NCBI GenBank assembly: GCA_045105615.1
Contig: JBGCDS010000030.1
Location: 16,498-80,497 of the forward strand
Direction of reading: 5' to 3'
Origin: Gammaproteobacteria bacterium
GTDB lineage: Bacteria > Pseudomonadota > Gammaproteobacteria > UBA4575
Length of the DNA: 64,000 nt
In this document: piece after piece, positions 21,959 to 45,689 of the stretch
Numbering within the stretch: position 1 is the stretch's first letter
Layout of the letters: every line of letters starts with the position of its first letter
Program-made: the position numbers and the translations under genes
Notes under the pieces: generated by a model
What the model saw: the letters and a program-made list of their open reading frames with translations, nothing else
Database searches by the model: none
What the model was told of the DNA's origin: nothing

Positions 21959-21972
21959 ATTTATTTAGTTGA

Positions 21973-22641: not shown

Positions 22642-23098
22642 GATGATCATGAGAATGTGAATGACTATGCCCATGCCCCTGTGAATATGCACCTGATTCA
22701 GGTTCAAAGGGGGCTGATTCTTTACTTATACTAAGATTTAAGTGTTCTAGCATTTCATTCAACACATGATCGTAATGAAACCTTAAGTATGTTGGTTTGA
22801 CTTCTAGTGGCACATGGCGATTACCTAAGTGATAGCTGGCACGCATTAAAAGCAAGGGGTCGTTAGAAGTAGCAGTGCTTACTTCTTCGTCGGCAGATAC
22901 GATCTCAATGATTTCGCCGGATTCTGCTTGTAATTTATCGCCGCCACGTAAAACTATTCCACGAGGTATGAATAAACCTGCTTCTTCACCACTATCCAGT
23001 TGAGTGTGCAGTCTTGCTTTCTGTCTGGATTCGAAGGGTAAGGTTAATGTGTAACTAGCATCGACTTTAGTGTCGATTTTACTGGTAAGTTTAATCAC
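22634..23098 (-). CDS. ureE: Urease metallochaperone UreE
   Basis: 154 aa. UreE fold region LGNRHVPLE. His-rich tail HGHSHSHSHDHHE. Confidence 0.92.
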   Translation of the reverse strand: MIKLTSKIDTKVDASYTLTLPFESRQKARLHTQLDSGEEAGLFIPRGIVLRGGDKLQAESGEIIEIVSADEEVSTATSNDPLLLMRASYHLGNRHVPLEVKPTYLRFHYDHVLNEMLEHLNLSISKESAPFEPESGAYSQGHGHSHSHSHDHHE

Positions 23099-23115
23099 TT
23101 AAATTATGTCCGTGA

Positions 23116-24819
23116 CTAAAAGAGAAAATATCTCTGTGCCAGCGCGACAACTTCCGCAGGTTCACAAGTAAGTAACTTACCATCGGCACGTACTTCGTAT
23201 GTTTGTGGGTCTACTTCAACGTTGGGCTGATAGCTGTTATTGATCATGTCGCATTTCCTAATTTTTCTAGTATTGTTTACAGCTATACATTGTTTGTGCA
23301 GAGAAAGTTGTTTTGCAATATCATTATCAATTGCTGCCTGTGATACAAAAGTATAGCTAGTTTTATAGTTCGCACTAGCATAAGCGCCAAACATGTAGCG
23401 ATAGTGGACTGGTTGTGGCGTAGGAATAGATGCATTTGGGTCACCCATGGGTGCTGCTGCAATAAAGCCTCCTTTAATGATTAGCGCAGGTTTAACGCCA
23501 AAAAATGCAGGTTTCCATAGTACTAAGTCTGCAAGTTTACCAACTTCGATCGAACCGACCTCATGTGAGATTCCATGGGTTATTGCCGGATTAATTGTGT
23601 ATTTTGCAATGTAGCGTTTTGCACGATTGTTATCATTCTCAGAACTATCTTCTTCTAGTGGCCCGCGTTGTTTTTTCATCTTGTCAGCAGTTTGCCAGGT
23701 GCGACAAACAACCTCACCTACACGGCCCATCGCTTGAGAATCTGATGCAATCATGCTGAATGCGCCTAAATCATGAAATATATCTTCTGCAGCAATAGTT
23801 TCTTTGCGGATTCTTGATTCTGCAAATGCGACATCCTCAGGAATTTTTGTATCAAGATGATGACATACCATCAACATATCCAAATGTTCATCAATTGTGT
23901 TAACGGTATAGGGGCGAGTCGGGTTAGTGCTTGAAGGTAATACATTAGCTTCTCCGCACGCACGAATAATATCTGGCGCATGACCGCCACCAGCACCTTC
24001 AGTGTGATATGTATGGATGGCACGTCCTTTAAATGCAGCAATAGTATCTTCGACAAATCCAGATTCATTGAGTGTATCGGTATGAATTGCCACTTGAATG
24101 TCATACTTTTCTGCTACGTTTAGACAGTTGTCGATTGAAGCGGGCGTAGTTCCCCAATCTTCGTGCAACTTGAGTCCCATTGCACCTGCGATAACCTGTT
24201 CTTCTAATGCTGCAGGTAAACTCGCATTACCTTTGCCTAGGAAGCCTAGATTCATCGGAAAAGCATCGGCCGCTTCCAGCATTTTGTGTATATTCCACGG
24301 TCCTGGAGTGCAGGTGGTTGCATTGGTTCCTGTTGCGGGACCTGTGCCTCCACCTAACATGGTTGTTACGCCAGACATTAATGCTTCTTCAATTTGTTGC
24401 GGACAAATAAAGTGTATGTGAGCATCAATACCACCTGCAGTAATGATTTGACCTTCACCTGCAATGGCTTCTGTACCTGGGCCTATCGCAATATTTACAT
24501 TGGGTTGTATGTCAGGGTTGCCGGCTTTACCGATGCCGAAAATTCTTCCGTCTTTAATTCCAATGTCTGCCTTAACAATGCCCCAATGATCTAATATTAA
24601 TGCATTAGTGATGACAGTATCGACAACGTCTTTCGAACATAACTGGCTTTGACCCATGCCGTCACGAATTACTTTGCCGCCACCAAATTTTACTTCTTCA
24701 CCATAGGTTGTATGATCTTTTTCAACTTCTATAAATAGATCGGTATCACCTAAGCGGACTTTATCGCCAATGGTTGGGCCGAACATTTCTGCATAGGCTT
24801 GTCTGCTAATTTTGGCCAT
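23116..24819 (-). CDS. ureC: Urease alpha subunit UreC
   Basis: 567 aa. [31 protein letters not shown]. Confidence 0.98.
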
Positions 24820-24823
24820 AGTT

Positions 24824-25132
24824 TTATTTCACCTTTCCCATTACTTTGGCGTTGAATCCGTAAATTATTTTACTGCCGTCAATTTCGACTAATTCAATAG
24901 TTCTTTCTTGGCCTGGTTCAAACCGTACTGCAGTCCCTGCGGCAATATCTAAGCGCATACCTAAAGTACTTTCTCGGTCAAAAATTAATGCGCTATTAGT
25001 TTCGTAAAAGTGGTAATGAGAGCCGACTTGTATTGGGCGATCACCTGTATTAGCGACTGTAATATTTAATTTTTTACGACCTTGATTGAGTTCAATGTCA
25101 CCCGATTGTGCAATTAGTTCGCCAGGTATCAT
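24824..25132 (-). CDS. ureB: Urease beta subunit UreB
   Basis: 102 aa. MIPGE N-terminus, [15 protein letters not shown]. Confidence 0.97.
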
Positions 25133-25149
25133 GTGTATATTCCTATGAT

Positions 25150-25452
25150 TTAAGTAATAGGGTTGTGTACGGTAACAAGCTTGGTGCCGTCTGGAAATGT
25201 TGCTTCAACTTGAACATCATGAACCATTTCAGCAATGCCATCCATGACGTCATCCTGTGTTAATAGGTGTCTACCTTCTTCCATTAATTCTGCTACTCGC
25301 TTTCCTTCTCTTGCGCCTTCTAATATCGCACAAGATATATAAGCGATAGTCTCTGGATAGTTTAATTTAATACCTTTGTCTTTACGTCGCTCAGCAAGTA
25401 GGCCAGCAGTAAATAAAAGCAATTTATCTTTTTCTCGTGGTGATAATTCCAT
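25150..25452 (-). CDS. ureA: Urease gamma subunit UreA
   Basis: 100 aa. [23 protein letters not shown]. Confidence 0.97.
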
Positions 25453-25470
25453 GCCTGTTCCTATGTAAAA

Positions 25471-26322
25471 TTAAGTATGCCAAATTCTAGGAGTACTTGA
25501 CTCTAGCTGGAGAATTTGAGGTCGTAGTAGTTCCCATAAAGCTGCAAAAAAGTCTTTTATTTTCTCTGCGTAGGCGCTCATTGCTCGTACAATAAATAAA
25601 CCATTCAGTGATGTACAGGAGTTGCTTAGTTCTTTGAACCGTTGAGCGACTTCATTAATGGCTTCTACCTTAATAAGTGCATCACTGTCGCTAGTGACAA
25701 AAGTACCCACTGACTTATGGCCTTGAAGCCCCCAACTAGCATCAAGAAGGTCATCGCCGCCAATGAGGCGATTAGTTTCTAATAGTACGGGTCTTTTATC
25801 TCGCCAAATTTCTAACTTTTGTCTGCATTGGCCTGAAATAAAGTATTCTTTTTGTGCGGGTAAACCTAAACATTGAATTTCCCAAGCAAAAAAACGATTA
25901 GTTTTATTTAGATTGATTCTAGTCGTTGATGCTGCGTTTGTGTCATTGAAATAAACTGTTTCTTGAGGGAGCCATTCTAATATAGCATTCTCTTCTAGAT
26001 TGATTGTCTGGTTTTGGCATGCTTGTATACCAGTGCTGCGATAAAACTTAGTCGCGGCAGGAGTCGTAATTAAGGCATGCGAATTTTCATTAAGTTGCGC
26101 ACTAAGGTTAAGTGAGTCTCCGCCAACAATGCCGCCAGGTGGGTGGATTAAGTAAATATGACAACAGCCATTTGATTCCGGATAAAATGGTTTTTGAACC
26201 ATTAGTGGGCCAGAGTGTTTTTTGCTGGTAAGAATAGTTTTGTTATTTCTTTGTGTAAATGATAAATCCAGTGTTGCTTCCCAGCTTGCTTGCTTTGATG
26301 ACGGTGATGCAGAGGCAGCCAT
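25471..26322 (-). CDS. ureD: Urease accessory protein UreD
   Basis: 283 aa. UreD/UreH-like HPPGGIVGGD. Position at the head of ureABC. Confidence 0.9.
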   Translation of the reverse strand: MAASASPSSKQASWEATLDLSFTQRNNKTILTSKKHSGPLMVQKPFYPESNGCCHIYLIHPPGGIVGGDSLNLSAQLNENSHALITTPAATKFYRSTGIQACQNQTINLEENAILEWLPQETVYFNDTNAASTTRINLNKTNRFFAWEIQCLGLPAQKEYFISGQCRQKLEIWRDKRPVLLETNRLIGGDDLLDASWGLQGHKSVGTFVTSDSDALIKVEAINEVAQRFKELSNSCTSLNGLFIVRAMSAYAEKIKDFFAALWELLRPQILQLESSTPRIWHT

Positions 26323-26331
26323 TATCTAATT

Positions 26332-26502
26332 CTACTTTTTTATGTAATGGTAAATTATGCCACCAATTACAAACAATGCTAAAAAATACTCGATGCCTGA
26401 ATGGCTATGAAATATAGTTGTGTGTCCAGAATGTGAAAATGCTGGGGCAGCAAAAAACAAGAGAATTAAAGATAGGAAAATGCTGGCTAATCTAAAGTGC
26501 AT
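26332..26502 (-). CDS. Unlisted 56-aa His-rich small membrane protein between urtE and ureD
   Basis: My own translation is MHFRLASIFLSLILLFFAAPAFSHSGHTTIFHSHSGIEYFLALFVIGGIIYHYIKK. AGGAG lies 7 nt upstream of the ATG. The stop is 9 nt before the ureD ATG and the start is 21 nt after the urtE stop. Signal peptide, His cluster and one TM helix. Confidence 0.55.
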   Translation of the reverse strand: MHFRLASIFLSLILLFFAAPAFSHSGHTTIFHSHSGIEYFLALFVIGGIIYHYIKK

Positions 26503-26523
26503 AATTTTCTCCTAGGTGCTTTT

Positions 26524-27222
26524 TTACACCTTCAAATATTTATCGATTAAGTGATCATCTAGCTCATCCATTGAGCCCTGGGCAACATCGCGACCTTTTT
26601 CTAATATACAGAAATTGGATGCAACTCGTCTCGCGAATGGTAATTTCTGTTCAACTAATAATACCGTGAGTCCAAGCTCCTGGTTTAACTTTTTTATAAT
26701 GTCGCCTATTTCACGCACTATATTGGGTTGTATGCCCTCAGTTGGTTCATCAAGTATTAATAATTCAGGCTCTATGGCTAATGCGCGACCAAGTGCGAGT
26801 TGTTGCTGTTGCCCACCGGATAAATCTCCACCTCTACGGTGTAACATTTCTTTCAATACAGGGAATAATTCGAAAATAATCGGTGGTAGTTGCTTAGATT
26901 TGTTGGCGACTAGGCCTGTGTTTAGATTATCTTCAACGCTGAGCTGAGAAAATATTTCTCTGCCCTGTGGGACATAGCCTATTTTATGGATAGCGCGTTT
27001 CTCGGCATTTAACTTAGCAATGTCTTTGCCTTTGAAGTTAATAGAGCCATCAGTGGTAGATTCTAGCCCCATAATACATTTGAGTAGGGTGGTTTTGCCA
27101 ACGCCATTGCGACCCATTAAGCAGGTGACGCTACCTTCTGGTACATCTAGCGAAAGATCCCACAATGTATGGCTTTCTCGATAATATTGGTTGATTGAAG
27201 AAACTTTTAACATATTAATCAC
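26524..27222 (-). CDS. urtE: Urea ABC transporter ATP-binding protein UrtE
   Basis: Walker A GRNGVGKTT, signature LSGGQQQ. Last gene of a branched-chain-type ABC set next to urease genes. Confidence 0.9.
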   Translation of the reverse strand: MINMLKVSSINQYYRESHTLWDLSLDVPEGSVTCLMGRNGVGKTTLLKCIMGLESTTDGSINFKGKDIAKLNAEKRAIHKIGYVPQGREIFSQLSVEDNLNTGLVANKSKQLPPIIFELFPVLKEMLHRRGGDLSGGQQQQLALGRALAIEPELLILDEPTEGIQPNIVREIGDIIKKLNQELGLTVLLVEQKLPFARRVASNFCILEKGRDVAQGSMDELDDHLIDKYLKV

Positions 27223-27961
27223 CTAAATATACTTCAATCACTTTACGGTCATTTTGGATTTTATCCATAGTGCCTTCTGCGAGTACTGATCCTTGATGTA
27301 ACACGGTAACTCGTTTTGCAATGGATCTAACGAATTCCATATCATGTTCAACGACGACAACAGAATGTCGTTTTGCCAATGATGTTAGCAATTCTGCGGT
27401 GCGCTCAGATTCCTGATGAGTCATTCCCGCAACAGGTTCGTCGACTAGTAGGACTTGAGGATTTTGAGTAATTAACATACCAATTTCTAGCCACTGTTTT
27501 TGTCCGTGCGATAACTCACCGGCCATTCTATATTTCTCAGCTTGAAGCCCTATAGTCTCAAGTGAATAATCAATTTTATTACGTTGATCTTCATTAAGCT
27601 TGTAAAAAAGATTACTTAAAATGTCGCGATGACCTTCTAGAGCAAGCTGTAAATTATCAAACACGCTGTGATTCTCGAATACAGTAGGTTTTTGAAATTT
27701 ACGACCAATACCTAAGTTGGCAATTTCAGCTTCATCTTTAGTAGTTAAATCGACATGGTCTCCAAAATAGACTTCGCCTTCATCAGGTTTGGTTTTACCG
27801 GTAATGATATCCATCATGGTTGTCTTGCCGGCACCATTTGGGCCAATAATGCAGCGTAATTCATTCTTATCTATGTAAAGACTTAATTCATTGATCGCTT
27901 TGAATCCATCAAAACTAACAGAAACATTATTCAAATATAGTATAGATTCATTTTTTTCCAT
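27215..27961 (-). CDS. urtD: Urea ABC transporter ATP-binding protein UrtD
   Basis: Walker A GPNGAGKTT, signature LSHGQKQ, Walker B LLVDEP. Confidence 0.9.
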   Translation of the reverse strand: MEKNESILYLNNVSVSFDGFKAINELSLYIDKNELRCIIGPNGAGKTTMMDIITGKTKPDEGEVYFGDHVDLTTKDEAEIANLGIGRKFQKPTVFENHSVFDNLQLALEGHRDILSNLFYKLNEDQRNKIDYSLETIGLQAEKYRMAGELSHGQKQWLEIGMLITQNPQVLLVDEPVAGMTHQESERTAELLTSLAKRHSVVVVEHDMEFVRSIAKRVTVLHQGSVLAEGTMDKIQNDRKVIEVYLGD

Positions 27962-29106
27962 TATGATTTCTCTATATTTGCTTGAGATTGCTTAATCGAT
28001 TTGTTTTTAGACTTACGCATGCTTATTTGGTTATAAAGGCCAACTAAACCTTTAGGCATAAATACAGTCACGAATACAAACATGCTGCCTAAGATAAATA
28101 GCCAAGCCTCAGGTGCCCATGCGGTAAAGAATGTTTTTGCATAATTAACAACAAATGCACCTAGTACTGCTCCATATAAAGTACCTCGACCACCAATGGC
28201 CACCCAAATTACAAGCTCAATTGAGCGTAAAGGGGCAAACTCACTTGGATTAATGATGCCGACTTGTGGAACATATAATGCACCAGCAATGCCAGCTAAT
28301 AATGCAGAAATTACGAAGATAAATAATTTAATATGTTCATCTCGATAACCCATGAATCGCACACGGCTTTCTGAATCTCGAATGGCCATGACTAAACTTC
28401 CAAGACGCGATTGCGCAATGTATTTGCATAACGCATAACCGGATAGTAATGCGATGGCAGATGCAAAAAATAATGCACATCGTGTGGTGTTATCTTGCAG
28501 GTTGAAGCCTAATATTTCTTTAAAGTCGGTTAATCCGTTGTTACCACCAAAACCAAAGTCATTCTGGAAGAAAGTTAACATTAAGGCGTAGGTCATTGCT
28601 TGCGTCATAATAGATAAGTACACGCCAGTCACGCGCGAGCGAAACGCTAACCAGCCAAATACAAATGCAAGTATCCCTGGAGCGACAAGCATCATTAATA
28701 ATGCCATTGAGAAGTGATCAAAACCAAGCCAATACCAAGGTAGTGATTCCCAATTTAAAAATACCATGAAGTCTGGTAGTAATGGATTGCCGTAGACGCC
28801 GCGATCACCAATTTGTCGCATTAAATACATTCCCATGGCGTATCCACCTAGGGCGAAAAAAGCACCATGGCCTAAACTAAGTATGCCTAAGTAACCCCAA
28901 ACTAAATCAACTGATAGGGCTAATAATGCATAACATAAATATTTACCTAACAAAGTGACAGTATAAGTTGAGATATGTAAAACAGAATCTACCGGTGTAA
29001 GTAAGTTAAGGGCAGGAATAACGATGGCAGAAAAAATCACCACGACTGTGAGAATTTTACTGCCCGTGTCTGACAGTAGTAACCGTTGTATGAGAGATTT
29101 TTCCAT
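27961..29106 (-). CDS. urtC: Urea ABC transporter permease UrtC
   Basis: 381-aa LivM-type polytopic permease in urt order. Confidence 0.88.
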   Translation of the reverse strand: MEKSLIQRLLLSDTGSKILTVVVIFSAIVIPALNLLTPVDSVLHISTYTVTLLGKYLCYALLALSVDLVWGYLGILSLGHGAFFALGGYAMGMYLMRQIGDRGVYGNPLLPDFMVFLNWESLPWYWLGFDHFSMALLMMLVAPGILAFVFGWLAFRSRVTGVYLSIMTQAMTYALMLTFFQNDFGFGGNNGLTDFKEILGFNLQDNTTRCALFFASAIALLSGYALCKYIAQSRLGSLVMAIRDSESRVRFMGYRDEHIKLFIFVISALLAGIAGALYVPQVGIINPSEFAPLRSIELVIWVAIGGRGTLYGAVLGAFVVNYAKTFFTAWAPEAWLFILGSMFVFVTVFMPKGLVGLYNQISMRKSKNKSIKQSQANIEKS

Positions 29107-29110
29107 AGTA

Positions 29111-30781
29111 TTAGTTGTCTACTGATCGACCCTTCAAAGCAAACATGCCTCGAGGTCTTTTTTGGATGAATAAAATAATTAATACCAGCACAATTATTTT
29201 TGCTAACACAGCACCGGTGACTGGCTCGAGATATTTATTAGCAATACCTAAAGTCATTGCACCAAATAATGTGCCCCATAAATTTCCCACACCGCCAAAC
29301 ACAACAACCATGAATGAATCAATGATATAGGCTTGACCTAAGTTAGGCCCCACGTTAGTTAGCTGGCTAAGTGCAACACCAGCAATCCCTGCAATACCTG
29401 AGCCTAAACCAAAAGTGAATGCGTCTACCCAGTCTGTTCTTATGCCCATAGCCTTTGCCATTGAACGATTTTGAGTAACAGCTCTGACCTGCAAGCCAAA
29501 TTTAGATTTGTTGAGTAGCAGCATTAGCCCAACAAGTACAAGTAAGGCAAATATAATGATGTAGAGACGATTGTAGGTAAGGGATAAGGCTGGGTTAATT
29601 TCAAGTGAGCCACTCATCCAATCTGGAGTAGAGACCGCACGATTTTGTGGCGAAATAAGTGTGCGTACTGCCTGCTGTAAAATTAAGCTAATACCAAAAG
29701 TTGCCAATAAGGTTTCTAGTGGACGTCCATAGAGAAATCTTATAACACCACGTTCTATACCAATACCAACAAGCCCTGTGAATACAAAGGCAGTGGGTAT
29801 AGAGATAAGGATGGAATATTCAATATGATTGGGGAGTAATAGTTGCACTATGTAAGTGGTGTAAGCACCTAGCATTAGCATTTCACCGTGTGCCATGTTG
29901 ATCACGCCCATGACGCCAAAGGTGATTGCTAAACCTACAGCAATGAGCAGTAAGACAGATCCTAAACTAACACCAAAAAATATATTTTCTACTTGTTTAT
30001 ATATGCCAACGCTGGATTCAATTTTTCTCAATGAGGTGTGAATTTCATGGGTAAGTTCTTGAGATTTTGTTGTTTGTGTTTTATTAGAAAGGCTTTTTTC
30101 TAGTTCTTTTAATGCAACGCGTACTTCAGGGTAAAGCGAATCTGATAACGCCTTTATTGAGTCAAGTTTTTTCTCATGTATGGGAGAGTTTAATTGATTG
30201 ATTGATATGGCTGTTTGTAATGCACTGATCACGTTTTTGTTTTTTTCTACAGTGAGTCGTTGTTTTAATATGGAGGAAGTTTCATCATCCATATTTTTGA
30301 ACATCTCTACTGCGGCAGATTTCCTAACTTTTGCATCTTTATCAGCTAAACTCAATTGAGCGATAGACGAGTTTAAGGTGCGTCTTAGTTTGTTATTGAT
30401 GCCTACTTTTTTGAGCTTTTTCTTAGTTGTTTCGCTTAGCAATTTACCAGTGCTAGCATTAATAATGCTGGCTTTTTTATTTTGAATATCAGCGATGACG
30501 ATTAATTTATCATCTTTTCTATAATAAACTTTTCCATCTAATAGCTTAGACAAAACGGTTAGGGATCGTGGGTGTTCTGATTGCTGTATTTTTTTGATAA
30601 TGACAGCTTTTTCATCAAACTTTTTAGTCGTCAGGCTGGCGACTAATTGAGAAAAGTTTAATGGTGTGTCATTAGTATCAATTTCTTCTGCAAGAGAAAA
30701 TCCTGCTAGCAGAGAGGAAAATAATAAGATAAATATTAATTTTGACAGCATTTTAATTATTATTATGAAAGGGCGTTCCAT
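29111..30781 (-). CDS. urtB: Urea ABC transporter permease UrtB with about 250-aa N-terminal extension
   Basis: The C-terminal 300 aa or so form a LivH-type permease. The N-terminal half has a signal/TM segment followed by a helical repeat-like soluble region. The start is uncertain (30781 or ATG 30751, MLSKLIF...). Confidence 0.85.
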   Translation of the reverse strand: MERPFIIIIKMLSKLIFILLFSSLLAGFSLAEEIDTNDTPLNFSQLVASLTTKKFDEKAVIIKKIQQSEHPRSLTVLSKLLDGKVYYRKDDKLIVIADIQNKKASIINASTGKLLSETTKKKLKKVGINNKLRRTLNSSIAQLSLADKDAKVRKSAAVEMFKNMDDETSSILKQRLTVEKNKNVISALQTAISINQLNSPIHEKKLDSIKALSDSLYPEVRVALKELEKSLSNKTQTTKSQELTHEIHTSLRKIESSVGIYKQVENIFFGVSLGSVLLLIAVGLAITFGVMGVINMAHGEMLMLGAYTTYIVQLLLPNHIEYSILISIPTAFVFTGLVGIGIERGVIRFLYGRPLETLLATFGISLILQQAVRTLISPQNRAVSTPDWMSGSLEINPALSLTYNRLYIIIFALLVLVGLMLLLNKSKFGLQVRAVTQNRSMAKAMGIRTDWVDAFTFGLGSGIAGIAGVALSQLTNVGPNLGQAYIIDSFMVVVFGGVGNLWGTLFGAMTLGIANKYLEPVTGAVLAKIIVLVLIILFIQKRPRGMFALKGRSVDN

Positions 30782-30835
30782 TATTAGAACGCCCGATTTG
30801 TAACGAGAGTGTTTAGTTACCTAACCATCTATAGG

Positions 30836-32113
30836 TTAGTAATTTTGTCCTGAACACTTCTTAGTTTCAGTGTTGAAGTTACCGCAGTTGATTGCCGGAT
30901 CAGCCCAATCAGATACAATCAATGCACTTTCTGGAAGGTAATCCGTCCAGGCATCACCTTTAACTTCACCATCAGTTGACCAAACAATTTCAAATTGGCC
31001 GTCATCTTGTATCTCACCTATTAGAACGGGTTTAGATAAATGGTGGTTTGTATTCATCACTGCAGTACCGCCTGTTAAGTTTGGAATTTCCAATCCGTAC
31101 ATAGCAGGGCGAACTTTATCAACTTCTGTAGTCCCAGCGGTTGTGACAGCTTGTGCCCACATTTTGAAACCAATGTATGTGGCTTCCATTGGATCGTTGG
31201 TTACGCGCTCTTCGTTACCAATAAACGTTTGCCATGCTTCAATGAATTGATCATTTACTTCGCTTTCAGCACTTTGAAAGTAATTCCATGCCGCAAGGTG
31301 TCCAACTAATGGTGTGGTATCAATACCCGAAAGTTCTTCTTCTCCAACCGAGAATGCAACTACCGGAATATCTTCTGCTGACATGCCTTGATTACCTAAC
31401 TCTTTGTAGAATGGTACGTTTGCATCTCCATTAATAGTTGAGACAACCGCTGTTTTCTTGCCTGCAGAACCAAATTGCTTAATGTCAGAAACAATTGTTT
31501 GCCAATCAGAGTGACCGAAAGGTGTGTAGTTGATCATAATATCTTTTTCATCAACACCTTTAAGCTTCAAATAGGCTTCTAGAATTTTGTTGGTTGTACG
31601 TGGATATACATAATCCGTTCCTGCAAGTACCCAACGTTCAACACCGCCATCCATTAAGTAATCAACGGCTGGAATGGCCTGCTGGTTTGGTGAAGCACCT
31701 GTGTAGAACACATTTTTAGATGATTCTTCGCCCTCGTACTGAACTGGATAGAATAAAAGTCCATTTAATTCTTCAACAACTGGAAGCACCGACTTTCTTG
31801 ATACTGATGTCCAGCAACCGAAAATCACATCTACTTTATGAACTTCGATTAATTCTCGCATTTTCTCAGCGAATAAAGGCCAGTCTGATGCTGGGTCTAC
31901 AACAACCGCTTCTAACTGCTTGCCTAAAAGGCCGCCTGCTTTATTTTGTTCCTCAATCATCATTAACACAGTGTCTTTTAGTGTTGTTTCACTAATTGCC
32001 ATAGTGCCGGATAACGAGTGAAGCACGCCTACTTTTATAGTGTCTGAGAATGCGTTTGATGACCATGCAATCATCGCAACACATAACACTGACCACAAAC
32101 TCAACTTTTTCAT
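30836..32113 (-). CDS. urtA: Urea ABC transporter substrate-binding protein UrtA
   Basis: 425 aa. Signal peptide and a LivJ/amide-binding type periplasmic fold (IKVGVLHSLSGTMAISE). First gene of the urt set. Confidence 0.9.
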   Translation of the reverse strand: MKKLSLWSVLCVAMIAWSSNAFSDTIKVGVLHSLSGTMAISETTLKDTVLMMIEEQNKAGGLLGKQLEAVVVDPASDWPLFAEKMRELIEVHKVDVIFGCWTSVSRKSVLPVVEELNGLLFYPVQYEGEESSKNVFYTGASPNQQAIPAVDYLMDGGVERWVLAGTDYVYPRTTNKILEAYLKLKGVDEKDIMINYTPFGHSDWQTIVSDIKQFGSAGKKTAVVSTINGDANVPFYKELGNQGMSAEDIPVVAFSVGEEELSGIDTTPLVGHLAAWNYFQSAESEVNDQFIEAWQTFIGNEERVTNDPMEATYIGFKMWAQAVTTAGTTEVDKVRPAMYGLEIPNLTGGTAVMNTNHHLSKPVLIGEIQDDGQFEIVWSTDGEVKGDAWTDYLPESALIVSDWADPAINCGNFNTETKKCSGQNY

Positions 32114-35659: not shown

Positions 35660-36214
35660 ATGAAAGATAATAGTGTTAAGCCAGGTCTAGTCATTATGAA
35701 TACGAAAGAGCAAGGATTTGAATCCATGGTTCATGCCTATTCGAAGGACCTTTATAGGTATGGGTATTGGCTGAGCAAGGATAATGGGATAGCAGAAGAC
35801 CTGGTGCAAGAGACGTTTTTGCGAGCATGGCGAGCAATCGATTCTTTAAACGATGCAAAAGCGGCAAAAAGTTGGCTTTTCACAATTTTACGACGTGAAA
35901 ATGCACGTCGATTTGAGAAAAAGAGTGCTCAAGCTGAATTGACAACGCTCGATGATGAAATGGTGGAAATATTTGCGACTGTCGATGACGATTTTGCGAA
36001 CGTTGATAATATTGCTGTTCGCGCAGCATTACGCCAATTGCCAGCATCCTATGCCGAGCCGTTGGTTTTACAGGTGATTGGTGGTTATTCGTGTGACGAA
36101 ATTGCGACCATTATCGATGCTAAGCCAGGCGCGGTGATGACTCGAGTTTTCAGAGCCAGACAAAAATTAAGAAAGCTATTAGAAGAGGAAGAGACCAGAA
36201 TGGTCTCAATATAG
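35660..36214 (+). CDS. ECF-type RNA polymerase sigma factor
   Basis: 184 aa. Region 2 DLVQETFLRAWRA. Region 4 SCDEIATIIDAKPGAVMTRVFRARQKLR. Confidence 0.88.
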   Translation: MKDNSVKPGLVIMNTKEQGFESMVHAYSKDLYRYGYWLSKDNGIAEDLVQETFLRAWRAIDSLNDAKAAKSWLFTILRRENARRFEKKSAQAELTTLDDEMVEIFATVDDDFANVDNIAVRAALRQLPASYAEPLVLQVIGGYSCDEIATIIDAKPGAVMTRVFRARQKLRKLLEEEETRMVSI

Positions 36215-36216
36215 AT

Positions 36217-36924
36217 ATGGATGATATGAATTGTTTAGCGGCAAGACGCATTATTACTACCGATATCACTGATAAAAGCAATGCTTTTGTTCAGCATGTT
36301 GCTAGTTGCTCGACTTGTAAATCTTTTTATGAGAAGCAACTTAAGTTTAATGCGGTCTTAAAGAAAGCGGTTGATATTGATGTTCCAGAAGGTTTGGCTT
36401 CACGTATTCTAGTTGAACATAGTCTCAATAAGAGAAAGCAAGGCAATCAAAAGTACCGTTGGAGTGCAATCGCAGCTAGTGTCATGTTGGTATTTGCTGT
36501 CTCAATTGTTTCTACGTTTAATACACAGCCTGCGATTGCAGGTGTGATTTTAGAACATGCACATGATGAGCTTTGGGTGTTGGAAGACAAGGATCACGTG
36601 ACTTTAGAAAGTCTAAATCAATTATTAAAGCCGCATGGTGTGAAAGCGGATGATAATATTGGCTATGCGACACATGCGGGTAATTGCATCATCCAAGGTA
36701 AAGTGGGTGTGCATATTGTTTTTGCTGGTGAAAATGCGCCGGTGACATTGATTGTTTTCCCTGAACCTTTAGACCATAAAGAAAGTGTCCGTATAAGTGA
36801 TCATTTTTTTAAAGGTGTTTTGATGGGAACTAACAAAGGAACGTTAGCATTATTGTCTGAAGATGAAGAATCTTTGAAGAAATTTGAGGCTAGATTAAAT
36901 ACTTCTTTGATGACGTTTATCTAA
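36217..36924 (+). CDS. Anti-sigma factor (DUF3379-like, single-pass membrane protein)
   Basis: Starts 3 nt after the sigma gene stop. N-terminal C...H...C..C zinc-finger-like anti-sigma segment (CLAARR...HVASCSTC), a central TM helix and a periplasmic C-terminal domain. Confidence 0.7.
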   Translation: MDDMNCLAARRIITTDITDKSNAFVQHVASCSTCKSFYEKQLKFNAVLKKAVDIDVPEGLASRILVEHSLNKRKQGNQKYRWSAIAASVMLVFAVSIVSTFNTQPAIAGVILEHAHDELWVLEDKDHVTLESLNQLLKPHGVKADDNIGYATHAGNCIIQGKVGVHIVFAGENAPVTLIVFPEPLDHKESVRISDHFFKGVLMGTNKGTLALLSEDEESLKKFEARLNTSLMTFI

Positions 36925-39061: not shown

Positions 39062-39568
39062 TCAGCTGGCTTTAAAGTGTAACGCGTTGCCATTGTTGCA
39101 CCAACGTTCTCCTTTCGGTAATGGCCCATCCATAAATAAATGACCATGGTGTCCACCACAACGCGCACACTTATATGCTCTTTGTGGGGGAATCGCAGAT
39201 AGATCAGTATAAGTTACTAAATGCCCTAGAATGTGTTGTTTAAAACTGGGCCATCCAGTGTGACTCTCATACTTCATTTCTGAGGTGAATAAATCTAAAT
39301 CACAACCCTGGCATAAATAAACACCTGTTCGCCACTCCTTGTTTAAAGGGCTTGATTGGCGTATTTCTGTCTTGCCTTTTCTGAGAACATAGTAGGCATT
39401 TTCGGAGAGCTTTTGTTTCCACTCATCATCGCTTAATGTTAGCGTTTGAATGTCACTTGCTGCTGTATATAATTGTTTGCTCTTGCCTGAGAGTATTTGT
39501 AGATATACAAAACCGGTGAAGCCAAATACTCCTATTAAGAAATTTCTACGTGATTTAGATAAATTCAT
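39062..39568 (-). CDS. msrB: Peptide-methionine (R)-S-oxide reductase MsrB with twin-arginine signal peptide
   Basis: SelR domain with two CxxC zinc pairs (CQGC, CARC), GWPSF, HGHLFMDGP and the catalytic Cys in RWCNNG. The N-terminus SRRNFLIGVFGFTG matches the Tat S-R-R-x-F-L consensus. Confidence 0.88.
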   Translation of the reverse strand: MNLSKSRRNFLIGVFGFTGFVYLQILSGKSKQLYTAASDIQTLTLSDDEWKQKLSENAYYVLRKGKTEIRQSSPLNKEWRTGVYLCQGCDLDLFTSEMKYESHTGWPSFKQHILGHLVTYTDLSAIPPQRAYKCARCGGHHGHLFMDGPLPKGERWCNNGNALHFKAS

Positions 39569-40487: not shown

Positions 40488-40574
40488 ACGGTCGATTTCG
40501 ACCGATGACGTGTAAAGCAATTTTTCTACTTCACACTATAATTAACCCTGTAGTTTCTCTCCTTCTGAAGCTGG

Positions 40575-40605
40575 CCCGCAGTAATTTATTATTGCGGGTT
40601 TTTTT
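40575..40605 (+). terminator. Rho-independent terminator
   Basis: CCCGCAGTAAT-TT-ATTATTGCGGG followed by TTTTTTT, about 90 nt after the PilZ stop. Confidence 0.75.
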
Positions 40606-40720
40606 ATGCCTGCTGTATAGTCTCTGTATACCTGATATTAATCTTAAGCTTGTCCCTCAGGCGCTCAAGTGATTGAATGTGGTCCCGAAGTTACTTCTAG
40701 ATATAACAGGTCTAATTCTT

Positions 40721-41092
40721 ATGAAATCGTTGTTGTTAGTTGCACATGGCAGTCGCCGTGCTGAATCAAATGCTGAAATTGCCGTTGTTGCTAAGTCTTT
40801 GAGTGAGAGAGTTAAAGGAAATTATGCTCGAACAGGCTATGCATTTTTAGAACTGGCCGAACCATCTATCCCAGAGGGTATTGATACACTAGTTAAAAAT
40901 GGTGCGACTGAAGTGACGATACTTCCATACTTTCTGTCCGCAGGGCGTCACGTACATGAAGATGTGCCTGAAATCGTTAATCTGAAACAAGAAGAAATGA
41001 AGGATGTAAAGATACATATCGCACCTTATATTGGCGAAGCAGTAGAAATGATAGATGTGTTAGTGGCTATCTCTGAGAGTGGCAAAAAATAG
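40721..41092 (+). CDS. cbiX: Small CbiX/SirB-type sirohydrochlorin chelatase
   Basis: LLLVAHGSRRAESN and ILPYFLSAGRHVHEDVPE motifs. ATG 40721 (MKSLLLVAHG) is preferred over the TTG at 40673. Confidence 0.8.
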   Translation: MKSLLLVAHGSRRAESNAEIAVVAKSLSERVKGNYARTGYAFLELAEPSIPEGIDTLVKNGATEVTILPYFLSAGRHVHEDVPEIVNLKQEEMKDVKIHIAPYIGEAVEMIDVLVAISESGKK

Positions 41093-41097
41093 CAATT

Positions 41098-41904
41098 TTA
41101 TTTGCTTGTCAGGCTATTCTGCTCAGTGATAATAAGCGATACCTGACTACGGTTTAGCCAGTCAGATAGGTAAGTTACTGCTACTTTACTGACTTCTTCT
41201 TCAGGATGATATGAAAGCAGATTTTCGCATACATCACTTAATGATCCTCCTTTTAAGAAAATGTTTATTGATTCTAGTTCACTTATTTCAAGTGATCTAA
41301 ACTCAGTGACTCTTTGCGCATTTCTCCAAATAACCCAGGTGGAGTCATCGCATTGTTGCACGTCAGGTGGAGATTGTTGTTGTTTCAGTGCTTGCCAGAT
41401 TTCAACACAGTTATAATTGTTTTGAAATAATTGCAAACTGGGATGAAAACGGATTTTAATGTTGGGCCAATCTTCAATCGATAATTTACTTAGATCAAAC
41501 ATGCTTGCGGCTGTAGAGTCGTTGGCATCGAATGCAAATAATAGTGTTTGCTCAAATCGTGCAAGTTCTGCAATCACTGGATATTGATTAAAGGGCGGAT
41601 TGTTTTTTAAATAATCAGGTACATTGCTGCAAAATTCGCGTAATGAAGTGTGATTTGAAGGGTAGGCGTCAATGTATCCTTCTACTAACTGATCAAATAA
41701 TTCGTCACCAAGATAATAGCTTAAGATTTGATGATCAGTATCGATTACTCCACGCAAGCGAACCGTGTAAGCATTGCTATAAATATTAAGCCGCGTCTGT
41801 TTGTCGATCGGGCCGCCATCTTTAATGTAGTCATCAACTTGTTGCTTTTTATGAACTAGATAGTTGATTAAATCTGACTGTAAGGCTCGTAAGTCTGGCA
41901 TCAA
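41098..41904 (-). CDS. DUF2063 family protein (BufC/HvfC-type partner of MNIO enzymes)
   Basis: 268 aa. RLNIYSNAYTVRL...YLGDELFDQLVEGYIDAYPS matches the DUF2063 N-terminal pattern as I recall it. Starts 12 nt after the upstream DUF692 gene. Confidence 0.75.
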   Translation of the reverse strand: MMPDLRALQSDLINYLVHKKQQVDDYIKDGGPIDKQTRLNIYSNAYTVRLRGVIDTDHQILSYYLGDELFDQLVEGYIDAYPSNHTSLREFCSNVPDYLKNNPPFNQYPVIAELARFEQTLLFAFDANDSTAASMFDLSKLSIEDWPNIKIRFHPSLQLFQNNYNCVEIWQALKQQQSPPDVQQCDDSTWVIWRNAQRVTEFRSLEISELESINIFLKGGSLSDVCENLLSYHPEEEVSKVAVTYLSDWLNRSQVSLIITEQNSLTSK

Positions 41905-41916
41905 GGCTTTTTAGTT

Positions 41917-42756
41917 TCAAACAGAGGTTAACGCTAAGGTTTGTTGGGCAATATCACGTGCATACTTCATTTCTGCATGCAGATCTTCAAATGGCGGAAT
42001 ATTGTCATCTCTTTCAATTAAAGTGCTAACAAAGCCAAATTTCTTAACAGCATCAGCATATAAGTCCCATACTGCAGGAGGGACATCATGATCATGTGTA
42101 TCAATTACATAATCGCCGTAATCACTATGACCGGCTAAATGAAATTGTTGGATATGTTCGGGCTTGATCGCATGTAAAAATGTTTGTGCAGAAAAACCAT
42201 GGTTTCGTGAACTGACATAAATATTGTTAATGTCTAACAATATTTTGCAGCCGGCACGATCTGCAATGGTATTAATGAAATCCCATTCTTCCATGTCTGA
42301 TTGATTGTAAGTGAGATAGCTAGAAACATTTTCTAGGACTAATGTTCTACCTAATATTTCTTGTACCTGTTGAACGCGGTCAACAATGTGTGTAATCACT
42401 TCGTCGTTGTATGGAACCGGTAATAAATCATGACTGTTTAGACCTTCTGCGCCTGTCCAGCATAAATGATCAGATACCCATTCGGGTTGTACTTCGGAGG
42501 ATAACGTTTTTAGTTTTTTTAAATAATCCATATTTAATGGATCAGTGCTGGCGATCGACAACGATACACCATGCATCACAATAGGGTAATTTTCTCTTAC
42601 TGAATGGAGGAAGTACTTAGGCTTGCCTCCTGCAACCATAAAGTTTTCTGAAATGACTTCGAACCAGTCAACGTCAGGTCGATTATCGACAACATGTTGA
42701 TAGTGGTCAGTGCGAAGTCCTACGCCAAATCCAAGAAAATTATTATTCATGATCAT
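41917..42756 (-). CDS. DUF692 / MNIO (multinuclear non-heme iron-dependent oxidase) family enzyme (BufB/HvfB/MbnB-like)
   Basis: 279 aa. N-terminal FLGFGVGLRTDHY, then WFEVISENF, HGVSLSI and LIERD, as in the UPF0276/DUF692 TIM-barrel proteins. Confidence 0.85.
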   Translation of the reverse strand: MIMNNNFLGFGVGLRTDHYQHVVDNRPDVDWFEVISENFMVAGGKPKYFLHSVRENYPIVMHGVSLSIASTDPLNMDYLKKLKTLSSEVQPEWVSDHLCWTGAEGLNSHDLLPVPYNDEVITHIVDRVQQVQEILGRTLVLENVSSYLTYNQSDMEEWDFINTIADRAGCKILLDINNIYVSSRNHGFSAQTFLHAIKPEHIQQFHLAGHSDYGDYVIDTHDHDVPPAVWDLYADAVKKFGFVSTLIERDDNIPPFEDLHAEMKYARDIAQQTLALTSV

Positions 42757-42815
42757 TCTTTTGAAACACGGGAAGCGACTAGCACTCCCCGTGATATCGG
42801 AGTATTGGTGATAAA

Positions 42816-43286
42816 TTAAGCGCCTACTTTGCCGCCAACATCACCACAAGATTTCTCTGTGGTAGCAACAAAACCCTGGCCTTTGCATGATGCTTGACCA
42901 GCGCATGAGTTTTCAGCAGTACCGCAATCATTGTGGCCTTTACAAGTGTTTATGCCATAGCAGTGGATTAAATCAGTTTTTGCAATTTCACCAACCCAGT
43001 CATCTTTAACTGTGCCGCCAATATCGCCACATGCTTTGCTTGGTGCAGCAACAAAGCCGCTTCCTTTACAAGATGCTTGTCCGCCACATGAATTGTCAGC
43101 AGTGCCACAATCGTTATGACCTTTGCATACGTTGACGCCATAGCAATGAACTAAATCTGTTGTATTAGCTGAAGCTGAAGCAACTTCAGCAGTTTCAGAT
43201 GTTGTTTGACAACCGCTGATGATTCCAGCTGCTGCTAGTGCTAATGCAACGCCAGTCATTTTTGGAGCAAGTTTTAAGTTTTCCAT
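42816..43286 (-). CDS. Secreted 12-Cys RiPP precursor-like lipoprotein (bufferin/DUF2282-like, tandem 6-Cys modules)
   Basis: 156 aa. Signal peptide with lipobox IISGC (Cys26). Two 51-aa repeats (residues 43-93 and 104-154) share 39 of 51 identical residues. Each has the pattern HCYG.N.CKGHNDCGTA.NSC.GQASCKG.GFVA....CGD.GG.V. AAGGAA RBS. First gene of the operon. Confidence 0.75.
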   Translation of the reverse strand: MENLKLAPKMTGVALALAAAGIISGCQTTSETAEVASASANTTDLVHCYGVNVCKGHNDCGTADNSCGGQASCKGSGFVAAPSKACGDIGGTVKDDWVGEIAKTDLIHCYGINTCKGHNDCGTAENSCAGQASCKGQGFVATTEKSCGDVGGKVGA

Positions 43287-43432
43287 GATTGATTCCTTAT
43301 GTTAAATCTCTATAAAATATGAAGTGAGTATAAGTAGGGTAACTATTTGAAAGCAGCATTTTTTAGGCTGTATCTTGGTGTTACTAGATACAAGACCTTA
43401 GTAATGTGGCGTTAATTACAAAATAATTTAAT

Positions 43433-44134
43433 TTATTTTAATAATTCTTTAGAGGTGATGGGGTGGTAAGGAGTATTCCGTGTTTTATCATGGGTATGCA
43501 TGCGATATTCAACAAAATCACTGCATTTATGGAAGTGTAAGAATGGATTGCCACTGATTTGTTCGCTCAGATGTGAGGTCGATTGATTGGCATAATTATG
43601 ACCAGGATGAATGACGGTGTCAGGATCAAGATTGCTTTTCATCTTTTTTAATGTGGAAAACATTTGCTCAGGGTCGCCGCCCTGTAAGTCGCATCGACCG
43701 CATCCGAATACAAATAATGTATCACCAGTAATGATATCATTGTCGAGTAAATAGCATGCTGATCCAGGAGTATGTCCAGGAGTATGCAAGACAGATATTT
43801 CTGTATCGCCAATATTAAGTGTATCGCCACCGTAATGTAGCGATGGCTTACTTAAATTCTCATCCCAAAAATCTGCTTCTTCTTTTAGTAAATGTAACTG
43901 TGGGTCCGAGTGGTTGAGGATCTCCTCTACACCGTTGATATGATCGTGGTGACTATGGGTGAGTAACACATCAGTAATAATGATGCCTTTTGACTGTGCC
44001 TGTTGAATGATTTTACAAACATCCCAAGCCGGATCAACAACAGCCGCCTGTTTGGTCCTAATATCAGTAATTAAATAGACGAAATTTTCCATTGGTCCTA
44101 GTTCCAAGGAGTTAATTTCATATGTCTTATTCAT
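43433..44134 (-). CDS. MBL-fold metallohydrolase (glyoxalase II / YcbL / persulfide dioxygenase-like)
   Basis: THSHHDHINGV metal motif and GDTLFVFGCGRCDLQGGD. ATG 44134 (MNKTYEI, GGAG upstream) is preferred over the track start 44320, which would overlap the divergent mug gene. Confidence 0.8.
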   Translation of the reverse strand: MNKTYEINSLELGPMENFVYLITDIRTKQAAVVDPAWDVCKIIQQAQSKGIIITDVLLTHSHHDHINGVEEILNHSDPQLHLLKEEADFWDENLSKPSLHYGGDTLNIGDTEISVLHTPGHTPGSACYLLDNDIITGDTLFVFGCGRCDLQGGDPEQMFSTLKKMKSNLDPDTVIHPGHNYANQSTSHLSEQISGNPFLHFHKCSDFVEYRMHTHDKTRNTPYHPITSKELLK

Positions 44135-44220
44135 AGCATTGCTCCAATAGGTCGACATGTAAAATGTATCATGGTCTATGGGTATATAATGTAAAAGATA
44201 CTGATTTAAAATACAAAGAA

Positions 44221-44763
44221 ATGGATGACGCAAGTAATAATGAAATTTCTCTGCCAGACTATATTGATCATGGCTTGAAAATTTTATCGGTAGGCTTGAA
44301 TCCATCAATGCCATCAGCACAGTTAGGTTTTTACTTTGCTAATCCTCGCAATCGATTTTGGAAAGCATTCAATCAAGCCGGCGTGATTGGTGTGGAAGTG
44401 ACGCCAACTAAGAATATTCATCAACAGTTACTAGAAAAATATGGTATTGGTTTCACTGATGTGGCTAAACGCGCAAGCTCGATGGGGCATGAGTTGCGAG
44501 CGGCCGATTTTAAGAGAGATGCTCCTGTGCTACGTGAGAAAATAGAGCGTTATAGGCCTGAGTTAATATGGTTTCACGGTAAAGTGGCGATGAGCAAGTT
44601 TATGTATTATTCCTATGGCGTGCGGCAAGATTGGCAATGGGGGTTTAATAGTATTGATGCTATGAGGTCAAGGGTGTTTATCAGTCCAAATCCAAGTCCT
44701 GCGAATGCGGCTTATAGCCTTGATGTGCTAGTGGGTTATTATAAAAAACTTAAATCCAGATGA
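44221..44763 (+). CDS. mug: G:T/U mismatch-specific uracil-DNA glycosylase (Mug family)
   Basis: ILSVGLNPS, ANPRNRFW and SPNPSPANA motifs. ATG 44221 is preferred over 44164. Confidence 0.8.
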   Translation: MDDASNNEISLPDYIDHGLKILSVGLNPSMPSAQLGFYFANPRNRFWKAFNQAGVIGVEVTPTKNIHQQLLEKYGIGFTDVAKRASSMGHELRAADFKRDAPVLREKIERYRPELIWFHGKVAMSKFMYYSYGVRQDWQWGFNSIDAMRSRVFISPNPSPANAAYSLDVLVGYYKKLKSR

Positions 44764-44816: not shown

Positions 44817-45176
44817 TTGAAGATATATTTTCAATTAATTCTGATTACGATGATATTGCTATCATTGTTTTTATCGCTGTCCTCTTCGGGGCATTCGGTT
44901 CCTGTCGCGTGGAATGATAAACTGATTCATTGTGTTAGTTATTTCTTTCTAATGATGATGCTAGATTTCTCTTGGGAATCTAGTAAACAGCTGCTAATTA
45001 AAGCGGTGATAATATTAATCTATAGTGGCTTGATTGAATATGCACAGGGTTTTATACCAGGAAGAGATACCTCATTGGCCGATATTGCTGCTAACGGAAT
45101 AGGGGTGATGTTATTTATTGCCTGTGTGCCAATATTAAAGCGCATGAATGTCTATCAAATATTAAAGCTTATATAA
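44817..45176 (+). CDS. VanZ-family membrane protein
   Basis: 119 aa. Four hydrophobic helices and a VanZ-like EYAQGFIPGRDTSLADIAANGIG segment. The start is uncertain (TTG 44817 or ATG 44850). Confidence 0.65.
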   Translation: MKIYFQLILITMILLSLFLSLSSSGHSVPVAWNDKLIHCVSYFFLMMMLDFSWESSKQLLIKAVIILIYSGLIEYAQGFIPGRDTSLADIAANGIGVMLFIACVPILKRMNVYQILKLI

Positions 45177-45200: not shown

Positions 45201-45689
45201 ATGTATCGAATATTAAATTTATCGATTGTAGGTATTGTCATCGCTTCAATGTTATTTGCGCTTTACTACTTGGAGGGAGTGCTGTTTTTGGAGCCATGTC
45301 CTCTTTGTATGGTGGACAGGGCTATTTTAGTTGCGATTGCAATAGTATGTTTGATTGCATTTGTGCATAACGCGAATGGAATAATGCGTTGGGTTTACAC
45401 TAGTTTAGCTACCTTGTTAAGTTTGATTGGTTTGGGTGTGGCGGCACGCCATATCTGGTTACAAGGCCTACCGCCTGACCAGGTGCCAGAATGTGGTCCT
45501 GATTTAATGTTTATGTTGGACGTATTTCCGTTGGCAGATGTCATAAAACGTATATTTACCGGGTCTGGTCAGTGTGCAGAGGTGAGTTGGACCTTTTTAG
45601 GCATGACAATTCCTCAGCAAACCCTATTATTATTTGTTGTATTGCTCGTCTTAGTGATCGTCGCTCATATGCAATCTGAAAAACGCTAA
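45201..45689 (+). CDS. dsbB: Disulfide bond formation protein DsbB
   Basis: 162 aa with four TM helices. First periplasmic loop EPCPLCMVDR. Second Cys pair (PECGPD...GQCAEV). Confidence 0.88.
   Translation: MYRILNLSIVGIVIASMLFALYYLEGVLFLEPCPLCMVDRAILVAIAIVCLIAFVHNANGIMRWVYTSLATLLSLIGLGVAARHIWLQGLPPDQVPECGPDLMFMLDVFPLADVIKRIFTGSGQCAEVSWTFLGMTIPQQTLLLFVVLLVLVIVAHMQSEKR

Follow-up and report, generated by a model that had tools for sequence, protein, structure and literature searches.

A type-2 bufferin operon with a two-domain, predicted lipoprotein precursor in an uncultured marine gammaproteobacterium

The DNA analysed here is a stretch of 64,000 nt (contig JBGCDS010000030.1, positions 16,498 to 80,497 of the forward strand), referred to below as the window, from an uncultured marine gammaproteobacterium. 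Between positions 41098 and 43286 it carries bufA2-bufB-bufC, three co-directional open reading frames (ORFs) on the minus strand that specify 156, 279 and 268 aa and are separated by intergenic gaps of 59 and 12 nt. An earlier reading of the same DNA, made from the sequence alone (the original prediction), had described them as an operon for a peptide made by the ribosome and modified after translation (RiPP), consisting of a Cys-rich exported precursor, a multinuclear non-heme iron-dependent oxidase (MNIO) and a DUF2063 partner. The coordinates and lengths given there match exactly, and the motifs it listed were all found: FLGFGVGLRTDHY, HGVSLSI and LIERD in the second gene, and RLNIYSNAYTVRL, YLGDELF and AYPS in the third. 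The GC content of the operon (0.37–0.42) is the same as that of its surroundings. The genes and associated features are, in window positions:

41098..41904, minus strand: bufC, the DUF2063 / PME-type-1 partner (PF09836), with a C-terminal domain resembling a RiPP recognition element (RRE), from its fold
41917..42756, minus strand: bufB, the MNIO (DUF692) maturase of 279 aa (PF05114, NF050167)
42767..42793, minus strand: an 11-bp stem-loop in the gap between bufA2 and bufB (-18.1 kcal/mol, with covariation)
42816..43286, minus strand: bufA2, the precursor of 156 aa, in which a lipoprotein signal peptide is followed by two six-Cys bufferin domains in tandem
42825..42980, minus strand: bufferin domain 2, residues 103-154 (Cys 109, 115, 121, 128, 134, 147)
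43008..43163, minus strand: bufferin domain 1, residues 42-93 (Cys 48, 54, 60, 67, 73, 86)
43209..43286, minus strand: signal peptide, residues 1-25, and lipobox Cys26 (IISG|C, residues 22-26), read from the sequence
43393..43420, minus strand: bipartite motif TGTAAT-N17-GGTCT, a candidate promoter of the extracytoplasmic function (ECF) type or regulator site

Profile searches placed all three proteins in the families proposed for them, and the E-values are far beyond chance: 1.5e-110 (PF05114) and 1.3e-113 (BufB) for the MNIO, 1.2e-15 (DUF2063) for the partner, and 5e-41 (BufA2) for the precursor, which had been expected to belong to the 6/12-Cys bufferin class. BufB scores 369 bits against PF05114 and passes the equivalog model NF050167 (MNIO_BufB, 'MNIO family bufferin maturase') with 378.7 bits (cutoff 310), but it stays below the cutoffs for HvfB (268 < 360), MbnB (74.4 < 325), ApyH and ChrH. 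Because the BufB cutoff is passed and those for HvfB and MbnB are not, the system is a bufferin of type 2 and not of the Hvf/oxazolin or methanobactin type. The nine iron ligands of MbnB (H54, H90, E133, D163, N166, H192, D208, H210 and E239; PMC9060507) correspond, in an alignment to 7TCR, to H62, H97, E142, D175, N178, H206, D219, H221 and E248 of BufB, each of which is kept in at least 97% of 81 relatives. Next to the precursor gene there is thus a BufB-subfamily MNIO gene whose multi-iron site is intact. The closest solved structure is 3BWW. Alignment with relatives also indicates that translation may start at the third codon, ATG 42750, to give 277 aa.

The bufC product matches PF09836 (DUF2063) with 57.9 bits (cutoff 27.2), and its homologues are named 'HvfC/BufC family peptide modification chaperone' by their sources. 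A sequence search of the PDB with this protein found nothing. Its AlphaFold2 (AF2) model is confident (pLDDT 91.1), and the best Foldseek match was 3DEE (NGO1945; E 4.7e-8, TM 0.80 on the target), followed by TglI. The C-terminal part of the model resembles the RREs of lasso-peptide systems (6JX3_B and 5V1U), and the fold match to MbnC is weak only. The ORF of 268 aa was correctly called from TTG 41904 as an open frame, but the start is most likely ATG 41901 (267 aa), because the product on record (P0121) has 267 aa and its M1 is conserved in homologues.

The precursor passes the NCBIfam model NF050166 ('BufA2 family periplasmic bufferin-type metallophore') with 138.8 bits (cutoff 60) over two matched stretches. 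Against Pfam it gave no match at E <= 0.01, including PF10048 (DUF2282), and it is therefore not of the DUF2282/Buf1 type; the sequence EGKCG is absent from it. It had been credited with 12 Cys, but the actual count is 13, of which 12 lie in two tandem six-Cys domains and the other, C26, in the lipobox. Both domains are 52 residues long, share the spacing C-x5-C-x5-C-x6-C-x5-C-x12-C and are about 75% identical to each other. The N-terminus has a basic n-region and a hydrophobic core, followed by the lipobox. A signal peptide had been rightly noted, but it is of the lipoprotein (signal peptidase II) type, judged by motif and conservation, and not of the plain Sec type. With C26 at the end of a canonical lipobox, a lipoprotein is the probable product. 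In keeping with a RiPP-lipoprotein, the lipobox Cys stands at the junction of signal peptide and core of a precursor associated with an MNIO.

In the AF2 model of the precursor, domain 1 consists of a strand (42-49), a low-confidence loop bearing Cys residues, a second strand (78-81) and a helix (83-88), and the predicted order of secondary structure in domain 2 is the same. C48 and C109 lie in the first strand of their domains, and C86 and C147 in the short helix, a placement that agrees with the geometry described for the bufferin disulfide. Neither a sequence search of the PDB nor a Foldseek search with this model, in which the Cys loops are of low confidence, found anything.

The original prediction had ascribed unusual traits to this copy of the operon. 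The two-domain architecture, however, is the rule among its nearest homologues: each of the 120 best has a length of 149-165 aa and two domains in which the Cys spacing is that given above. Of these 120, 100 have a canonical lipobox Cys. At the +2 position, which is Gln here, 92 of the 100 carry A, Q, T, S or N, and one carries Asp. In 61 homologues none of the 12 domain Cys varies. Named examples with two domains come from Shewanella, Spartinivicinus, Endozoicomonas, Bacterioplanoides and Halioglobus, and the sources label homologues of 150-160 aa as BufA2 or Lipoprotein. Lysobacterales have two-domain precursors that lack a lipobox, and Pseudomonas, Bradyrhizobium and many others have precursors with a single domain. 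At closer range, this copy is 85-88% identical to metagenomic sequences, and BufB is about 93% identical to that of one close metagenome-assembled genome (MAG), SGMAG-20.

In a tree of the individual domains (a short alignment of low resolution), domains 1 and 2 of the window precursor group with the first and second domains of its relatives, respectively, which points to an old domain duplication. In four other precursors (from loci L003, L004 and L002, and P0065) the two domains of a protein are most closely related to one another, a pattern that suggests gene conversion or independent re-duplication in those lineages; elsewhere, first and second domains fall into distinct orthologous groups.

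A scan of one genome per species with BufB gave 80 loci, nearly all of which have a BufA2-type precursor gene before bufB and a DUF2063 gene after it. Of 84 related loci (L numbers), nearly all keep the order of the three genes, and their linkage is conserved across phyla. The window operon is flanked by genes for Mug, an MBL-fold hydrolase, CbiX, PilZ, MsrB, ATP sulfurylase, and DUF3379 with an ECF sigma factor, and these are shared with a close clade only (L001, L081, L083 and L084). L001 is a gammaproteobacterial MAG with a BufB 93% identical to that of the window. In L082, where the precursor is 78% identical, the three genes stand in an unrelated neighbourhood. Any other gene family is found in about 12 of the 80 loci at most, a DoxX-like protein in about nine; among the neighbours scanned here there is none, nor is there one among the 38 window ORFs scanned. 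Because the flanking genes are common only to the close clade and no other family recurs widely, the unit is the three genes, co-directional and bounded 3' of bufC by the convergent cbiX gene. The MBL-fold (GloB-like) gene at 43433-44320 was considered as a fourth member, but it accompanies the operon only in the four loci of the close clade. CbiX, PilZ and MsrB were likewise set aside, being absent beside the three genes in L082 and in other genera.

The gap between bufA2 and bufB contains the stem-loop listed above. In five relatives all cells of the stem alignment pair, with compensatory changes in four of the 11 pairs, and the covariation score is 0.482 compared with 0.266 for shuffled alignments (none of 500 reaches 0.482) and no more than 0.14 for slid controls. 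A hairpin of -12 kcal/mol or lower is present in this gap in 93% of 57 analysable loci from many phyla (median z-score -2.8 across loci), and the stem sequences are unrelated. It is probably a partial terminator or a stabilizer of the mRNA 3' end that raises the precursor over the enzyme. Partial termination or 3'-end stabilization favouring precursor over enzyme occurs in other RiPP operons. In the bufferin literature searched, we found no mention of a hairpin after the precursor gene or of the motif upstream of it.

The bipartite motif TGTAAT-N17-GGTCT lies 91-106 nt upstream of the bufA2 ATG. Neither half varies among the window, L001, L081, L083 and L082, and the sequence around them diverges. 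It occurs once in the 64-kb window, and six of the seven strict matches in 1.6 Mb of loci are upstream of bufA2. A relaxed search of the distant two-domain loci L002-L005 and L007 returned a weak variant in L004 only, and the motif is therefore specific to the clade. It probably directs regulated transcription, and it is possibly served by an ECF-type sigma factor.

Several observations adjoin this motif. L083 has a second exact copy (about 424-451, minus strand) inside the 3' end of dsbB, facing a gene similar to those of homoserine acetyltransferases; the window has no copy at the equivalent position, and the one in L083 may be due to chance. Directly downstream of the GGTCT half in the window is a 7-bp inverted repeat, TGTATCT-N10-AGATACA (43369-43392, minus strand), which is probably fortuitous, since it is absent from L001 and other relatives. 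Scans for sigma-70 promoters and intrinsic terminators gave counts at background level and called no terminator, and an Rfam scan of 40500-44500 gave only a chance-level match to Spot 42 (24.8 bits, against a gathering score of 80).

Five kb from the operon is an ECF sigma gene (PRK12517 subfamily, 215 bits) followed by a DUF3379 gene (35660-36924, plus strand), a pair that is syntenic in L081 and L083 and in which the DUF3379 protein is likely to be a membrane anti-sigma factor. The pair (35660-36214 and 36217-36924) was examined as a candidate regulator of the operon, but a link is not supported, as the sigma gene is preceded by a conserved element of its own, GACCTAGC...TTCGTACAGGAT, that differs from the buf motif. 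A TGTAAT near the sigma gene is not kept in L083.

With good confidence, we read the locus as a type-2 bufferin (Buf2) system with the thiooxazole chemistry of that family. We infer the following course for its chemistry, lipidation, localization, copper binding and regulation. The iron-dependent oxidase BufB would act with BufC in the cytoplasm, as both lack a signal peptide, and the RRE-like domain of BufC would dock the precursor. We speculate that the docking element is the strand (T/A)DL(V/I)HCYG(V/I)N repeated at the start of each domain, which would be in keeping with the published observation that part of the core takes part in recognition. BufB would then convert the four central Cys of each domain (54, 60, 67, 73, 115, 121, 128 and 134) into eight 5-thiooxazoles, each by a four-electron oxidation with the loss of 4 H. 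After export by Sec, Cys26 would be lipidated and signal peptidase II would cut before it, the first and last Cys of each domain would form a disulfide in the periplasm, and Gln at +2 would direct the lipoprotein to the outer membrane under the Escherichia coli rule. The tethered domains would bind copper through their thiooxazoles and buffer it in the envelope. At the level of expression, the hairpin would terminate or stabilize part of the transcripts, so that more precursor is made than enzyme, and TGTAAT-N17-GGTCT would drive regulated transcription, possibly through an ECF-type sigma factor. The polypeptide expected from C26 to A156 has 131 residues and a computed monoisotopic mass of 12,967.69 Da; the predicted shift is -32.25 Da for the thiooxazoles and a further -4.03 Da for two disulfides (-36.28 Da in total), to which acyl chains would be added.

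Several findings weigh against one or another part of this scheme. Confidence in the precursor model (mean pLDDT 68) is low in the Cys loops, which is where the Cys positions predicted to be modified fall, and BufC scores below the HvfC equivalog cutoff (41 < 142). The +2 sorting rule derives from E. coli, and this organism may not follow it. The T-run after the hairpin stem is short and imperfect, without a full U-tract, and the terminator consensus scan made no call on it. Upstream, a promoter of the SigF type was rejected, as the Caulobacter consensus (GTAACC-N16-CGAA) is matched in its first (-35) half only, and the conserved element in front of the nearby ECF sigma gene is a different one. 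The operon lies among housekeeping genes, with nothing local to tie it to copper: no copper-homeostasis genes (cop, cus or cue) were found among the 38 window ORFs scanned. Finally, a search of the literature covered here for experiments on two-domain (12-Cys) or lipidated Buf2 systems found none.

By analogy with the characterized bufferins, copper buffering, with copper binding by the mature domains, is the role we lean towards, somewhat less firmly than we do towards the chemistry. A different role for the same thiooxazole-lipoprotein chemistry, either as a copper store or relay for the assembly of cuproenzymes in copper-poor sea water or in protection from other soft metals or oxidants, is improbable but is the strongest of the alternatives. 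It would suit the housekeeping neighbourhood and its lack of cop, cus or cue genes, and also the general lack of dedicated sigma and anti-sigma genes in Buf2 biosynthetic gene clusters (BGCs). The lipid anchor and the doubling of the domain suggest a fixed site of high capacity and not a diffusible buffer, the related gig operons were first described as gold-induced, and genes for MsrB and DsbB are nearby, though they are not kept with the operon beyond the close clade. The sole functional data, however, are those for Buf1 and Buf2 of Caulobacter, and these comprise induction by copper and protection from excess copper; nothing in the present analysis points to a specific alternative role.

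As to the product, BufB might install methanobactin-like pairs of oxazolone and thioamide instead of 5-thiooxazoles. The two products are isomers with an identical mass change, and related MNIO products were initially assigned as oxazolone/thioamide. We consider this very unlikely, since the bufferin products have been assigned as 5-thiooxazoles (PMC11626156), the structure of oxazolin has been revised to 5-thiooxazole for systems of MNIO and DUF2063 partner generally (PMC13097082), and the enzyme encoded here scores as BufB and not as MbnB. That the precursor is an unmodified, disulfide-rich lipoprotein, or the operon a decaying remnant, can be entertained because an MNIO gene is missing beside some bufferin precursor genes and such clusters may not all be functional, but the three genes are intact with all catalytic ligands kept, the 12 domain Cys are invariant in 61 homologues, the gene linkage is kept across phyla, and BufB and BufC of Caulobacter Buf1 are required and sufficient for modification, so we give this possibility hardly any weight. 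The thiooxazole-bearing, copper-binding Buf2 lipoprotein is thus retained as the best explanation, and the original reading as a periplasmic metal-binding RiPP is supported, its basis being the work on Caulobacter Buf2 (PMC11626156). More doubtfully, the two-domain, lipid-anchored Buf2 proteins, for which eight thiooxazoles are predicted and sorting to the outer membrane is probable, might form a functionally distinct subclass. Unlike the soluble buffer in the periplasm of Caulobacter, they might store or relay copper at a fixed site of high capacity on the outer membrane, the cell surface or vesicles of marine Gammaproteobacteria, with an output tuned by the family-wide hairpin and a dedicated ECF-like promoter.

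The genes around the operon gave a number of further observations. The MsrB (SelR) methionine sulfoxide reductase (39062-39568, minus strand) has an N-terminal extension, MNLSKSRRNFLIGVFGFTGF, that resembles a twin-arginine export signal and suggests a periplasmic location; its gene adjoins the operon in the close clade only. The CbiX-type chelatase (40673-41092, plus strand; 139 aa, TTG start) is convergent with bufC, and the stop codons of the two genes are 5 nt apart, which leaves no room for a terminator between the units. On the other side, the MBL-fold (GloB/SolJ-like) ORF (43433-44320, minus strand; 295 aa, GTG start) overlaps the 5' end of a divergent gene for a Mug/UDG glycosylase (44164-44763, plus strand), and its translation probably begins at an internal Met near residue 63, relatives being called at 233 aa. 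Two kb upstream of the operon are genes for a VanZ-like membrane protein (44817-45176, plus strand) and DsbB (45201-45689, plus strand). DsbB is relevant in principle to the two predicted disulfides, and is a general housekeeping gene that is syntenic in close relatives only. Elsewhere, the surroundings in the window include, along with DsbB, genes for urease and urea transport, molybdopterin synthesis and citrate synthase. The urease cluster (UreD and the urease alpha subunit; 21347-32113, minus strand), which lies beside an ABC transporter of the urea/branched-chain type, fits the lifestyle of a marine heterotroph or ammonia scavenger and is unrelated to the bufferin operon.

Bufferins are among the most widespread RiPP families and represent a recently recognized layer of bacterial copper homeostasis. 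The locus described here adds nothing categorically new to them. It is a compact example (2.3 kb with the promoter motif) of the two-domain lipoprotein subclass, which dominates in marine Gammaproteobacteria, and could serve as a test case for how one BufB/BufC pair acts on two domains and eight Cys while sparing the lipobox Cys, for the lipidation and destination of thiooxazole peptides, and for whether tethering turns a buffering role into one of storage or delivery. The hairpin that follows the precursor gene would be a simple, testable means of setting the ratio of precursor to enzyme across the family.

The closest characterized system is Buf2 of Caulobacter vibrioides (buf2ABC, CCNA_03001-02999), described by Leprevost et al. 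in 2024 (PMC11626156). Its precursor has a six-Cys core in which the four central Cys lose 4 Da each, and in which CysI and CysVI carry no modification and are likely to be joined by a disulfide; Buf2 shows absorbance near 305 nm. DoxX is missing from the operon, which responds to copper by SigF-dependent induction and helps the cells to grow under copper stress (PMC11626156). Shared with the locus in the window are the order of precursor, MNIO and DUF2063 genes, the absence of DoxX, the six-Cys BufA2 domain, an N-terminal export signal and the BufB subfamily. The differences are that the precursor has two tandem six-Cys domains here and one there, that its signal peptide is of the lipoprotein type here whereas it has a signal peptidase I site there, and that here there is no linked SigF/NrsF pair and the -10 half of the upstream motif departs from the SigF consensus.

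These departures from the Caulobacter system have themselves been described bioinformatically. In a 2025 survey by the same group, about 90% of Buf2 precursors have six Cys and the rest (about 10%) 12, an AlphaFold model of one 12-Cys member has duplicated domains, about 16% of Buf2 precursors have lipoprotein signal peptides, and Buf2 BGCs lack sigma and anti-sigma genes (PMC12452194). Lipidated bufferins have also been predicted in a study that demonstrated lipidation of DybA, a different MNIO RiPP (PMC13056109). The novelty claimed in the original prediction was therefore overstated, since two-domain precursors with 12 Cys, the lipoprotein signal and the bufABC arrangement without DoxX or sigma factor genes had all been reported for Buf2 (PMC12452194, PMC13056109), and the statement that the 12-Cys subclass is uncharacterized holds for experiments only. 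From the 12-Cys and lipoprotein subsets of Buf2 (BUF_6/12Cys) known in silico (PMC12452194; PMC13056109), the locus differs in nothing of substance.

The captophorins with EGKCG repeats (HvfABC/oxazolin, fontiphorin and bulbicupramide) likewise combine an MNIO and a DUF2063/PME1 partner with a Cys-rich, exported precursor and give copper-binding 5-thiooxazoles, as is predicted for the locus here, and systems of MNIO and DUF2063 partner have been unified as 5-thiooxazole 'captophorins' (PMC13097082). The precursor described here lacks the EGKCG repeats, however, and BufB and BufC fall short of the Hvf cutoffs (HvfB, 268 < 360; HvfC, 41 < 142). From methanobactin MbnABC the locus is separated by the MbnB score (74.4 < 325) and by a partner of the DUF2063 type. 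The RiPP-lipoproteins represented by DybA (PMC13056109) resemble it in having a lipobox on an MNIO-modified precursor, an arrangement in which modification in the cytoplasm would precede lipidation and cleavage by signal peptidase II. They differ in the MNIO subfamily (ChrH), in the product, which is a macrocycle/hydantoin and not a thiooxazole, and in that lipidation is demonstrated there and predicted here. The nearest named homologues are the BufA2-family lipoproteins of Shewanella, Spartinivicinus, Endozoicomonas and Bacterioplanoides, and the locus is an ordinary Buf2 member, with the double-domain lipoprotein form that database surveys have recorded and that marine bacteria commonly have.

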